From: Escherichia coli
Lineage (GTDB): Bacteria > Pseudomonadota > Gammaproteobacteria > Enterobacterales > Enterobacteriaceae
NCBI RefSeq assembly: GCF_024502345.1
Contig: NZ_JALDNN010000001.1
Direction: 5' to 3' (one strand)
DNA: 64,000 bases
Each line of letters starts with the position of its first letter. Within the stretch, counting starts at the first letter, position 1. The notes under the pieces were generated by a model. The model saw only the letters and a program-made list of their open reading frames with translations. It did no database searches and was not told where the DNA came from. The position numbers and the translations under genes are program-made. Positions 1 to 54,553 of this stretch are shown here, piece by piece.

Positions 1-62
1 CTCAGCCTGATGTTTTTCAATAAAGACATACTTCATTTCAGGCGCTTCGCGAAGTATGTCGC
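1..62 (-). mobile_element. IS3 element, internal segment (3' end of orfA onward); continues past the window edge; split by IS30
   Basis: Reverse complement of 1-62 continues the IS3 OrfA frame (..TYFAKRLK*) that is broken at 1284; GC dinucleotide at 61-62 is repeated at 1284-1285. Confidence 0.7.
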
Positions 63-1283
63 TGTAGATTCAATTGGTCAACGCAACAGTTATGTGAAAA
101 CATGGGGTTGCGGAGGTTTTTTGAATGAGACGAACATTTACAGCAGAGGAAAAAGCCTCTGTTTTTGAACTATGGAAGAACGGAACAGGCTTCAGTGAAA
201 TAGCGAATATCCTGGGTTCAAAACCCGGAACGATCTTCACTATGTTAAGGGATACTGGCGGCATAAAACCCCATGAGCGTAAGCGGGCTGTAGCTCACCT
301 GACACTGTCTGAGCGCGAGGAGATACGAGCTGGTTTGTCAGCCAAAATGAGCATTCGTGCGATAGCTACTGCGCTGAATCGCAGTCCTTCGACGATCTCA
401 CGTGAAGTTCAGCGTAATCGGGGCAGACGCTATTACAAAGCTGTTGATGCTAATAACCGAGCCAACAGAATGGCGAAAAGGCCAAAACCGTGCTTACTGG
501 ATCAAAATTTACCATTGCGAAAGCTTGTTCTGGAAAAGCTGGAGATGAAATGGTCTCCAGAGCAAATATCAGGATGGTTAAGGCGAACAAAACCACGTCA
601 AAAAACGCTGCGAATATCACCTGAGACAATTTATAAAACGCTGTACTTTCGTAGCCGTGAAGCGCTACACCACCTGAATATACAGCATCTGCGACGGTCG
701 CATAGCCTTCGCCATGGCAGGCGTCATACCCGCAAAGGCGAAAGAGGTACGATTAACATAGTGAACGGAACACCAATTCACGAACGTTCCCGAAATATCG
801 ATAACAGACGCTCTCTGGGGCATTGGGAGGGCGATTTAGTCTCAGGTACAAAAAACTCTCATATAGCCACACTTGTAGACCGAAAATCACGTTATACGAT
901 CATCCTTAGACTCAGGGGCAAAGATTCTGTCTCAGTAAATCAGGCTCTTACCGACAAATTCCTGAGTTTACCGTCAGAACTCAGAAAATCACTGACATGG
1001 GACAGAGGAATGGAACTGGCCAGACATCTAGAATTTACTGTCAGCACCGGCGTTAAAGTTTACTTCTGCGATCCTCAGAGTCCTTGGCAGCGGGGAACAA
1101 ATGAGAACACAAATGGGCTAATTCGGCAGTACTTTCCTAAAAAGACATGTCTTGCCCAATATACTCAACATGAACTAGATCTGGTTGCTGCTCAGCTAAA
1201 CAACAGACCGAGAAAGACACTGAAGTTCAAAACACCGAAAGAGATAATTGAAAGGGGTGTTGCATTGACAGATTGAATCTACA
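63..1283 (+). mobile_element. IS30, complete 1221-bp copy
   Basis: Starts TGTAGATTCAATTGGTCAACGC, ends GATTGAATCTACA (terminal inverted repeats); length 1221 bp; single 383-aa transposase ORF; flanked by 2-bp GC direct repeat. Confidence 0.9.
125..1276 (+). CDS. insI: IS30 transposase
   Basis: 383-aa ORF with N-terminal HTH and DDE transposase; matches IS30 InsI as I recall it. Confidence 0.93.
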   Translation: MRRTFTAEEKASVFELWKNGTGFSEIANILGSKPGTIFTMLRDTGGIKPHERKRAVAHLTLSEREEIRAGLSAKMSIRAIATALNRSPSTISREVQRNRGRRYYKAVDANNRANRMAKRPKPCLLDQNLPLRKLVLEKLEMKWSPEQISGWLRRTKPRQKTLRISPETIYKTLYFRSREALHHLNIQHLRRSHSLRHGRRHTRKGERGTINIVNGTPIHERSRNIDNRRSLGHWEGDLVSGTKNSHIATLVDRKSRYTIILRLRGKDSVSVNQALTDKFLSLPSELRKSLTWDRGMELARHLEFTVSTGVKVYFCDPQSPWQRGTNENTNGLIRQYFPKKTCLAQYTQHELDLVAAQLNNRPRKTLKFKTPKEIIERGVALTD

Positions 1284-1555
1284 GCGGCCTTTTGGAGGAT
1301 AGCCAGCTCTTCATCCCGTTCTGCCAGCTGGCGTTTGAGACGTGCAATCTCGGTAGACATCTCCAGTTCACGTTCAGAAGACGTCTGCTGATTTTGCTGT
1401 TTACTGCGCCAGTTGTAGAGCTGTGATTCATACAGGCTGAGTTCACGGGCTGCGGCAGTAACACCGATGCGTTCAGCAAGCTTCAGGGCTTCACTGCGAA
1501 ATTCAGGCGAATGCTGTTTACGGGGTTTTTTACTGGTTGATACTGTTTTTGTCAT
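1284..1555 (-). pseudogene. insE: IS3 OrfA (InsE-type), first ~91 codons; reading frame interrupted by IS30
   Basis: ATG at 1555; frame runs MTKTV..AILQKAA, then enters IS30 at 1283; the remaining codons resume at 62..1. Confidence 0.65.
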
Positions 1556-1620
1556 GTGAGTCACCTCTGACTGAGAGTTTACTCACTTAGCCGCGTGTCC
1601 ACTATTGCTGGGTAAGATCA
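1284..1620 (-). mobile_element. IS3 left-end segment (terminal repeat plus 5' part of orfA)
   Basis: Reverse complement of 1601-1620 is TGATCTTACCCAGCAATAG.., the IS3 terminus as I recall it; OrfA begins MTKTVSTSKKPRKQHSPEFRSEALKLAERIG. Confidence 0.75.
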
Positions 1621-2231
1621 TAGATGCTACGGATATCCATATCCAGAACTTCAGCAATCTGATATGGATTATAACCAGAAACCATATACCCCATTATGGT
1701 GAATTCCATCTGAGTTAATGTGTTACCTCTGGTAAATGATAAATAACGACCAATAAATAGTTGTCTGATCTTTTCATTGGCAACATCAAGACCATCATCA
1801 TTATATATGACAGCAGATATTGCTGAGTTGTGTTTTCGCCAGTAATTAGCTAACGATTGCATATTGCGGTCGCTGACTAAAACAATCCCCATGTCAGTAC
1901 TTGCAAGATAGTCAATCCAGTCTTTTTCAAGGAATAGACGTAAAAAACTTACTGAAAAATCGACAAAAATATATCCGCTTAATCTCGCATTGTGGTTTTT
2001 AGTTAAGATACCTTCTACCACACCACGATTAAAATATGAACTTTCTTCGGGCCACATACAAAAACACGAGTTTGCGCAGTACTGCAAACGCGGTGACTCT
2101 TCTGGCATTATTTGGCAATGCATTGAGCAACTATTGCATGTAAGACTTTTATAACGACTACAAAGCCCCATGTTAAGAACCTCCCTATCCGTATATAATT
2201 GCATAATTTCATTGGTGATTGATGATGTCAA
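1602..2231 (-). CDS. yqeH: LuxR-family (GerE-type HTH) transcriptional regulator, YqeH-like; last codons supplied by the IS3 terminus
   Basis: 209-aa ORF; C-terminal LuxR-type HTH (..GNTLTQMEFTIMGYMVSGYNPYQIAEVLDMDIRSIY); sits next to the yqeG remnant as in K-12; stop codon lies inside the IS3 end. Confidence 0.6.
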   Translation of the reverse strand: MTSSITNEIMQLYTDREVLNMGLCSRYKSLTCNSCSMHCQIMPEESPRLQYCANSCFCMWPEESSYFNRGVVEGILTKNHNARLSGYIFVDFSVSFLRLFLEKDWIDYLASTDMGIVLVSDRNMQSLANYWRKHNSAISAVIYNDDGLDVANEKIRQLFIGRYLSFTRGNTLTQMEFTIMGYMVSGYNPYQIAEVLDMDIRSIYDLTQQ

Positions 2232-2865: not shown

Positions 2866-3922
2866 GGCTTTGTTGAATAAATCGAACTTTTGCTGAGTTG
2901 AAGGATCAGATCACGTATCTTCCCGACAACGCAGACCGTTCCGTGGCAAAGCAAAAGTTCAAAATCACCAACTGGCCCACCTACAATAAAGCCCTCATCA
3001 ACCGTGGCTCCATAACTTTCTGGCTGGATGATGAAGCTATTCAGGCCTGGTATGAGTCAGCAACACCTTCTTCACGAGGCAGACCTCAGCGCTATTCTGA
3101 CCTTGCCATCACGACTGTGCTGGTCATTAAACGCGTATTCAGGCTGACCCTGCGCGCTGCGCAGGGCTTTATTGATTCCATTTTTTCTCTGATGAACGTT
3201 CCGCTACGCTGCCCGGATTACAGCTGTGTCAGCAGGCGGGCAAAGTCGGTTAATGTCAGTTTCAAAACGCCCACCCGGGGTGAAATCGCACACCTGGTAA
3301 TTGATTCCACCGGGCTGAAGGTCTTCGGTGAAGGCGAGTGGAAAGTCAAAAAGCATGGCCAGGAACGCCGCCGTATCTGGCGTAAGCTGCATCTCGCCGT
3401 TGACAGTAAAACACATGAAATCATCTGCGCTGACCTGTCGCTGAACAACGTTACGGACTCAGAGGCCTTCCCCGGGTTAATCCGGCAAACCCACCGGAAA
3501 ATCAGGTCAGCCGCCGCCGATGGCGCTTACGATACCCGGCTATGTCACGATGAACTGCGGCGTAAGAAAATCAGCGCGCTTATCCCTCCCCGAAAAGGTG
3601 CGGGTTACTGGCCCGGTGAATATGCAGACCGTAACCGTGCAGTGGCTAATCAGCGAATGACCGGGAGTAATGCGCGGTGGAAATGGACAACAGATTACAA
3701 CCGTCGCTCGATAGCGGAAACGGCGATGTACCGGGTAAAACAGCTGTTCGGGGGTTCACTGACACTGCGTGACTACGATGGTCAGGTTGCAGAGGCTATG
3801 GCCCTGGTACGAGCGCTGAACAAAATGACGAAAGCAGGTATGCCTGAAAGCGTGCGTATTGCCTGAAAACACAACCCGCTACGGGGGAGACTTACCCGAA
3901 ATCTGATTTATTCAACAAAGCC
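2866..3922 (+). mobile_element. IS903-group (IS5 family) element, complete 1057 bp, no target-site duplication
   Basis: Left end GGCTTTGTTGAATAAATCG at 2866, inverse copy ending at 3922; exactly 1057 bp; flanks agtgcgcgg / cattcttct do not match, whereas IS903 normally makes a 9-bp duplication. Confidence 0.85.
2943..3866 (+). CDS. IS903-type DDE transposase (307 aa from a GTG start)
   Basis: ORF ..GLKVFGEGEWKVKKHGQERRRIWRKLHLAVD..DGAYDTR..SIAETAMYRVK; the track ORF begins at TTG 2898, but GTG 2943 gives 307 aa, which I recall as the IS903 transposase length. Confidence 0.8.
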   Translation: MAKQKFKITNWPTYNKALINRGSITFWLDDEAIQAWYESATPSSRGRPQRYSDLAITTVLVIKRVFRLTLRAAQGFIDSIFSLMNVPLRCPDYSCVSRRAKSVNVSFKTPTRGEIAHLVIDSTGLKVFGEGEWKVKKHGQERRRIWRKLHLAVDSKTHEIICADLSLNNVTDSEAFPGLIRQTHRKIRSAAADGAYDTRLCHDELRRKKISALIPPRKGAGYWPGEYADRNRAVANQRMTGSNARWKWTTDYNRRSIAETAMYRVKQLFGGSLTLRDYDGQVAEAMALVRALNKMTKAGMPESVRIA

Positions 3923-53377: not shown

Positions 53378-53404
53378 TTTCGTAAAGCAACAAGGAGAAG
53401 GATG

Positions 53405-54553
53405 ATGGCTAACAGAATGATTCTGAACGAAACGGCATGGTTTGGTCGGGGTGCTGTTGGGGCTTTAACCGATGAGGTGAAACGCCGTGGTTATCAGAAG
53501 GCGCTGATCGTCACCGATAAAACGCTGGTGCAATGCGGCGTGGTGGCGAAAGTGACCGATAAGATGGATGCTGCAGGGCTGGTATGGGCGATTTACGACG
53601 GCGTAGTGCCCAACCCAACAATTACTGTCGTCAAAGAAGGGCTCGGTGTATTCCAGAATAGCGGCGCGGATTACCTGATCGCTATTGGTGGTGGTTCTCC
53701 ACAGGATACTTGTAAAGCGATTGGCATAATCAGCAACAACCCGGAGTTTGCCGATGTGCGTAGCCTGGAAGGGCTTTCCCCGACCAATAAACCCAGTGTA
53801 CCGATTCTGGCAATTCCTACCACAGCAGGTACTGCGGCAGAAGTGACCATTAACTACGTGATCACTGACGAAGAGAAACGGCGCAAGTTTGTTTGCGTTG
53901 ATCCGCATGATATCCCGCAGGTGGCGTTTATTGACGCTGACATGATGGATGGTATGCCTCCAGCGCTGAAAGCTGCGACGGGTGTCGATGCGCTCACTCA
54001 TGCTATTGAGGGGTATATTACCCGTGGCGCGTGGGCGCTAACCGATGCACTGCACATTAAAGCGATTGAAATCATTGCTGGGGCGCTGCGAGGATCGGTT
54101 GCTGGTGATAAGGATGCCGGAGAAGAAATGGCGCTCGGGCAGTATGTTGCGGGTATGGGCTTCTCGAATGTTGGGTTAGGGTTGGTGCATGGTATGGCGC
54201 ATCCACTGGGCGCGTTTTACAACACTCCACACGGTGTTGCGAACGCCATCCTGTTACCGCATGTCATGCGCTATAACGCTGACTTTACCGGTGAGAAGTA
54301 CCGCGATATCGCGCGCGTTATGGGCGTGAAAGTGGAAGGTATGAGCCTGGAAGAGGCGCGTAATGCCGCTGTTGAAGCGGTGTTTGCTCTCAACCGTGAT
54401 GTCGGTATTCCGCCACATTTGCGTGATGTTGGTGTACGCAAGGAAGACATTCCGGCACTGGCGCAGGCGGCACTGGATGATGTTTGTACCGGTGGCAACC
54501 CGCGTGAAGCAACGCTTGAGGATATTGTAGAGCTTTATCATACCGCCTGGTAA
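53405..54553 (+). CDS. fucO: L-1,2-propanediol oxidoreductase (lactaldehyde reductase)
   Basis: 382 aa from MANRMILNE; iron-containing alcohol dehydrogenase family. Confidence 0.93.
   Translation: MANRMILNETAWFGRGAVGALTDEVKRRGYQKALIVTDKTLVQCGVVAKVTDKMDAAGLVWAIYDGVVPNPTITVVKEGLGVFQNSGADYLIAIGGGSPQDTCKAIGIISNNPEFADVRSLEGLSPTNKPSVPILAIPTTAGTAAEVTINYVITDEEKRRKFVCVDPHDIPQVAFIDADMMDGMPPALKAATGVDALTHAIEGYITRGAWALTDALHIKAIEIIAGALRGSVAGDKDAGEEMALGQYVAGMGFSNVGLGLVHGMAHPLGAFYNTPHGVANAILLPHVMRYNADFTGEKYRDIARVMGVKVEGMSLEEARNAAVEAVFALNRDVGIPPHLRDVGVRKEDIPALAQAALDDVCTGGNPREATLEDIVELYHTAW

Follow-up and report, generated by a model that had tools for sequence, protein, structure and literature searches.

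The left end of the window, the 64,000-nucleotide stretch of Escherichia coli DNA that was analyzed, was most probably shaped by three successive insertion sequence (IS) events (probability about 0.88): a deletion associated with IS3, the insertion of IS30 into the resident IS3, and a deletion associated with IS903B. The identities of the elements, their junctions, the target duplication, their distribution among sequenced genomes and the recurrence of the IS30 site were observed directly, and the coordinates are listed in Table 1.

Table 1. Features at the left end of the window, with the IS30 loci found at equivalent sites in other sequences.
Feature	Position	Strand	Basis
IS3 internal fragment, nt 397-336; end of orfA (TYFAKRLK, stop) and start of orfB	1-62	-	0 mismatches versus intact IS3 of E. 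coli C; blastn to locus L003, 5665-5726
GC target duplication (2 bp, made by IS30), left copy	61-62		Sequence inspection
IS30, complete, 1221 bp	63-1283	+	Length and ends; 2 nt differences versus K-12 IS30A
IS30 left inverted repeat	63-88	+	23/26 positions equal to the reverse complement of 1258-1283
IS30 transposase gene, 383 aa and stop, apparently intact	125-1276	+	HTH_38 1.6e-23, rve 4.1e-14
Truncated IS3 orfA', 119 aa: 91 native residues, then IS30-derived VDSICQ...SVV, stop	1196-1555	-	HTH_Tnp_1 4.1e-10
IS30 right inverted repeat	1258-1283	+	Pairs with left repeat at 23/26 positions
GC target duplication, right copy (IS3 nt 337-336)	1284-1285		Sequence inspection
IS3 left end, nt 337-1, including terminal inverted repeat, tip at 1620	1284-1620	-	Alignment to intact IS3
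IS3 A-AAA-G motif, nt 328-332, where the -1 frame opens	1289-1293	-	Three-frame translation of intact IS3
Chimeric yqeH' ORF, 189 aa and stop	1602-2171	-	Alignment to K-12 yqeH; equals WP_001389254.1
IS903B-like element, 1057 bp, replacing 4,348 bp of E. coli C	2866-3922 (flanks 2865, 3923)	+	blastn comparison
IS30 at IS3-family frameshift motifs (other sequences)	L008 (K-12 270206-272190); L007, L014-L017, L027, L029, L039, L045, L047

Positions 1-62 and 1284-1620 of the window correspond to nt 397-1 of IS3, read on the minus strand, with 0 mismatches over 397 nt when aligned to the complete element of E. coli C (1258 bp). The two halves are contiguous in IS3 coordinates (window 1620 to 1284 corresponds to nt 1-337, window 62 to 1 to nt 336-397), and the IS3 tip, TGATCTTACC, terminates at 1620. 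IS3 is visible in the window as far as nt 397, and its remainder continues leftward beyond the window. The near-identity, the terminal repeat beginning with TGATC, and an orfA with a -1 motif and an overlapping orfB, both frames being parted by IS30, place the element in the IS3 group. The first-pass annotation had assigned 1284-1620 to IS3 with its terminus at 1620 and had named a failed match of this segment as the result that would count against it; the alignment to the E. coli C element upholds the assignment. Translation on both sides of IS30 likewise bears out the split of orfA described there, into ...AILQKAA and TYFAKRLK followed by a stop.

The A-AAA-G motif at IS3 nt 328-332 is taken here to be the IS3 frameshift site at which OrfAB is made; Sekine and colleagues are said to have described, in 1994, IS3 frameshifting at an A-AAA-G motif. 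In a three-frame translation of the intact E. coli C IS3, the -1 frame was open from about nt 308, and a search of the same element for a frameshift-stimulating RNA family gave no Rfam match at E ≤ 1. The entry point of IS30 is IS3 nt 336/337, 3 nt downstream of the motif. With 1.2 kb now separating the slippery site from orfB, this IS3 copy cannot make OrfAB, and the earlier statement that IS3 is inactivated stands, orfA itself being cut by IS30. An intact right end could still allow the disrupted IS3 to be mobilized in trans.

The interrupting element has the characters of the IS30 family, namely a size of ~1221 bp, 26-bp imperfect repeats and a single 383-aa ORF with helix-turn-helix and DDE domains. 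Its transposase is identical to the common RefSeq protein WP_001254932.1 and differs by 1 residue from K-12 InsI1. The limits of IS30, its 2-bp GC duplication and its intactness had all been claimed from the sequence at first reading and were confirmed, the last by the HTH_38 and rve matches of the ORF and the pairing of the repeats. Judged from its intact ORF and ends, the element is potentially active. A 383-aa ORF at 53402-54553 was considered as a second IS30 copy and rejected; it is unrelated to the IS30 transposase, and the equal length is a coincidence.

The native part of yqeH occupies 1621-2171 and comprises codons 1-183 and 2 nt of codon 184, beginning with MGLCS... at window 2171, as in the K-12 protein. 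Positions 1602-1620 are IS3 sequence and supply the third base of Y184, followed by DLTQQ and a stop. Alignment to K-12 YqeH (210 aa) placed the yqeH/IS3 junction in codon 184/210, with the 26 C-terminal native residues (AYKQRIEKRMGGKINELFIRSHSVQH) lost and 5 IS3-encoded residues in their place. The first-pass annotation had correctly traced the stop codon and final ~5 residues to IS3, but the IS3 end does not lie inside the last codons of the gene as it proposed, and the change is not confined to the C-terminal end, since in comparison with K-12 the truncation falls in the helix-turn-helix. The 209-aa program-made ORF begins at a TTG upstream of the K-12 start, and the 20 spurious residues gained in this way give it a K-12-like length by accident.

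The ETT2-locus regulator YqeH is of the LuxR/GerE type, and an APEC yqeH deletion has motility and biofilm phenotypes (PMC9014576). K-12 YqeH scored 23.7 bits against Pfam GerE (residues 151-195), relative to a cut-off of 23.5 bits, and the window protein scored 14.1 bits (residues 151-177). A full-length 210-aa YqeH with a C-terminal GerE helix-turn-helix was not found in the window. The recognition helix, placed at approximately residues 180-193 by helix-turn-helix alignment and from weak PDB sequence matches only (sigma-factor and EvgA helix-turn-helix), is cut after five residues in YqeH'. The N-terminal domain (EcpR_N) is intact, and the ORF was conserved in every carrier examined. Because most of the recognition helix and all downstream parts of the LuxR/GerE domain are missing, YqeH' is probably unable to bind DNA and its function is probably lost.

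The fusion of IS3 with yqeH is shared with many other strains. An 80-nt probe matched the IRL/yqeH' junction at 100% identity in 199 of 5,426 complete E. coli genomes, among them those of strain C, BLR(DE3) and further B derivatives, and the ygeQ'/IRR junction was found in 190 of the 5,426, which were essentially the same set. In two RefSeq loci, those of USDA-ARS-USMARC-49610 and E. coli C, yqeH' is separated from a truncated ygeQ by an intact IS3 of 1258 bp, and beyond ygeQ' in both are tRNA-Gly, actS and xdhA. The exact 189-aa protein, WP_001389254.1, occurred in 10,794 blocks of public assemblies; ten further assemblies shown with this protein had the order yqeG-yqeH'-IS3-actS, with extra IS insertions in two. 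The allele of E. coli C and the B/BL21 derivatives (WP_001389254.1) has the IS3/yqeH junction, the 189-aa chimera and a first 397 nt of IS3 identical to the window. In that allele IS3 is intact, with a programmed-frameshift transposase annotated, whereas in the window IS3 is disrupted by IS30 and yqeG is largely deleted by IS903B. A separate observation was made in an NCTC strain (LR134315.1, locus L060, 6644-9040), where a second IS3-family element, whose product has 392 aa, separates yqeH' from the resident IS3, giving a further nested-IS variant of the locus.

In K-12, what remains of the ETT2 type III secretion island, genes yqeI through ygeP, occupies the interval from yqeH codon 184 to mid-ygeQ; the intact island measures 29.9 kb (PMC11068852). 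In related genomes the resident IS3 is flanked by TTC on one side and TAG on the other, with no 3-bp duplication, as would be expected had IS3 mediated the deletion, whether by adjacent deletion or by two IS3 copies recombining. From these comparisons, the IS3/yqeH' fusion is an old, widespread and already catalogued allele, and in the loci examined it forms one edge of an IS3-associated ETT2 deletion. Two ETT2 reviews (PMC11068852, PMC3032704) mention attrition but not the IS3/yqeH junction. For the window strain, the ETT2-deletion allele is read from the yqeH'/IRL side, the ygeQ' side lying outside the window. If the deletion is shared, the sequence to the left of the window is expected to contain 861 bp of IS3, then ...GGATGGAGTTC of ygeQ', tRNA-Gly and actS.

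Two other features are particular to this strain. The 4,348 bp replaced by the IS903B-like element comprise the 5' 995 bp of yqeG, together with yqeF, kduI and kduD, and araE follows directly after. The yqeG'-IS903B junction was absent from all 5,426 complete E. coli genomes, and none of them combined IS3::IS30 with yqeH'. The comparison of IS copy positions with sequenced genomes, which the first reading of the sequence had recommended for placing the strain, succeeded for yqeH'/IS3 (the 199 genomes above) but not for the IS3::IS30-yqeH' combination. Across window 3923-24000 (araE to ptsP), none of the 5,426 complete genomes was more than 99.7% identical to the backbone, so the lineage of the window strain is absent from that set; it may be a Shigella or an E. 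coli lineage not yet sampled. The IS30 and IS903B events are strain-specific markers.

The position of IS30 in IS3 is not unique to the window. About 30 other records carried IS30 at the identical IS3 dinucleotide in the same orientation, near rspA, near ymdE, and on STEC and other plasmids. The nests of ECONIH4 (rspA), STEC313 (ymdE) and pOkiPb01697_1 (saa) have the same IS3 dinucleotide, orientation and GC duplication as the window. Identity between other IS3::IS30 nests and window 1-1620 was 99.8-99.9%; their IS3 copies are at different loci, and none is the yqeH'/ygeQ' copy. A synthetic probe for IS30 in the opposite orientation at the same dinucleotide, with the same GC duplication, gave one perfect case, in strain 1368KP, and the opposite orientation marks this as an independent insertion event.

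A comparable nest is found in K-12, where IS911A is interrupted by IS30A (insN interrupted by insI1, CP4-6 prophage, NC_000913.3 270206-272190) and IS30 lies in an IS3-family orfA at a homologous codon position. The IS911 site of K-12 IS30A (AAAAAAGGCT-AC-CGCG) and the IS3 site (CCAAAAGGCC-GC-GACA) are homologous positions. In both cases the slippery A-AAA-(A)AG ends 3 nt before the insertion, with a duplication of AC in K-12 and GC in the window, and in both an intact IS30 has inactivated its host IS. The nests differ in that the K-12 host is IS911 with IS30 parallel to orfA, whereas the window host is IS3 with IS30 opposite to orfA. They also differ in frequency: the K-12-type IS911::IS30 junction was present in 1,778 of the 5,426 complete E. 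coli genomes, as compared to ~30 records for the IS3 version.

Half-sites were collected from the flanks of 39 IMG/VR loci and of E. coli loci, a sample that is small, prophage-biased and rich in homologous IS3-family sites. The 23 distinct half-sites gave the consensus AAAAA-S-G-C-N-[NN]. The full consensus, AAAAA-S-G-C-N-[NN]-N-G-S-TTTTT, is a 24-bp palindrome with a layout of 11+2+11 that includes the 2-bp duplication. Most of the half-sites are the frameshift motif of IS3, IS911 or at least three other IS3-family relatives, and they were seen in both orientations. The IS3 half-site AAAAGGCC consists of the A-AAA-G motif and the next bases, and is an excellent match to the IS30 hot spot. 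A weight matrix was made from only 11 half-sites outside IS3-family elements, chosen against circularity, and by this matrix the IS3 site ranked 7th among the 62,753 positions of the window with IS30 excised (4th by best half-site). Of the two halves of the IS3 site, only one matches the IS30 target consensus strongly.

According to PMC9333248 and PMC12445084, the hot spots of IS30 come close to a palindrome and follow a symmetric consensus of 24 bp, and insertion there makes 2-bp duplications; these two papers credit the consensus to Olasz et al. 1998. The natural hot spots (lambda LHS, 24-bp consensus) share the 2-bp duplication, the near-palindrome and the 11+2+11 layout with the sites collected here, and the resemblance of lambda LHS (coordinates of PMC9333248) to the collected consensus is loose and was given no weight as evidence. 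An exact-match search for the IS30 right end in 100,044 species-representative genomes returned one locus, at 69-99 of the Collinsella MAG contig JAIJJM010000048.1 (L011). That match is perhaps contamination or mis-binning, and it shows the sparseness of that scan.

Judged by its recurrence and target match, the IS30 position in IS3 is a recurrent hot spot and not an arbitrary nesting. A wider generalization is put forward tentatively, as a possibility that we think doubtful: the preferred 24-bp target of IS30 might coincide with the programmed -1 frameshift signal (A-AAA-(A)AG and GC), which IS3-family elements must conserve, and IS30 might systematically home to and inactivate IS3-family elements. 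No paper stating this generalization was found in the literature searched, and Olasz et al. 1998 may already list such sites. The coincidence of the IS30 target with the IS3-family frameshift signal is the mildly novel thread of the analysis.

Some nested copies have rearranged flanks. Four IS30 copies (L007 1320-2540, L014, L016 and L047) lack a target duplication, and each lies between halves that come from two different IS3-family elements. This points to recombination, or rearrangement mediated by IS30, involving IS30 copies that were nested in different host ISs. On plasmid pOkiPb01697_1, beyond the IS3 IRL at ~5621, the left end of IS3::IS30 abuts ...GCGACATACTT, which is IS3 nt ~337-347. 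This arrangement suggests either an IS3-in-IS3 insertion or a rearrangement close to the same region.

Three other explanations were weighed against the reading of three successive events. The yqeH junction could have arisen by a simple IS3 insertion in the last yqeH codons, changing ~5 residues and leaving the gene essentially whole, and both the five IS3-encoded residues that end the ORF and the closeness of 209 aa to the 210 aa of K-12 YqeH would fit. We consider this very improbable. The apparent length depends on the 20 spurious residues from the upstream TTG, 26 residues are missing beyond the junction, which the K-12 alignment puts at codon 184, and in every related genome examined the other end of IS3 abuts ygeQ' without a target duplication. 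No precursor with a simple IS3 insertion in yqeH and a CTA duplication was found among the 5,426 complete genomes; the sole match with at least 80% coverage consisted of two pieces joined across 566 bp.

For the IS30 insertion, the alternative is that homologous recombination or gene conversion copied the IS30-bearing segment in from another IS3::IS30 located on a chromosome or a plasmid. The IS3 arms offer 336 bp and about 920 bp of homology for such an exchange, identical nests in the same orientation exist at several loci and on plasmids (~30 records), and the hybrid IS30 copies lacking duplications (L007, L014, L047) show that nests do recombine. This route is nevertheless unlikely, since the hot spot accounts for the recurrence without extra steps, the opposite-orientation case at the same dinucleotide proves independent hits, and the window IS30 has 2 nt differences from the ECONIH4 IS3::IS30 copy. 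That the nesting is an assembly artefact of collapsed or mis-joined IS repeats is scarcely credible; IS elements are a classic source of misassembly and the window begins inside a repeat, but the two junctions are precise and show a perfect 2-bp duplication, the parts of IS3 on either side join up in its coordinates, and the same nest occurs in ~30 independently finished genomes.

We infer the order of the three events, and the arrival of IS30 by direct transposition, as follows. The ETT2 segment from yqeH codon 184 to mid-ygeQ would have been lost in an ancestor that this strain has in common with E. coli B, C and ~3.5% of sequenced E. coli, leaving a single IS3 whose left end supplied yqeH with five codons and a stop. 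IS30 would later have entered the resident IS3 at nt 336/337, creating the GC duplication. IS30 transposes by copy-out-paste-in, making staggered cuts 2 bp apart, and it favours a 24-bp near-palindromic hot spot. This insertion would have cut orfA and parted the slippery site from orfB, with loss of the IS3 OrfAB transposase. Next door, an IS903B-associated deletion would have taken yqeG'-yqeF-kduI-kduD.

Overall the region is an ordinary, textbook IS stack, and all of its events are known kinds of IS behaviour. The yqeH gene here is to be annotated as a truncated pseudogene or a remnant of the ETT2 deletion allele, and not as a near-intact regulator. The yqeH'-IS3-ygeQ' junction is a handy lineage marker for ~3.5% of complete E. 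coli, including B and C. Repeated IS30 hits at IS3-family frameshift sites could account for many of the "nested IS" annotations, and for some of the rearrangements mediated by IS elements. If the targeting of frameshift signals were true, it would amount to a built-in "safe haven" for IS30 or to an element-against-element interaction, and it would seed recombination between unrelated IS3-family copies.
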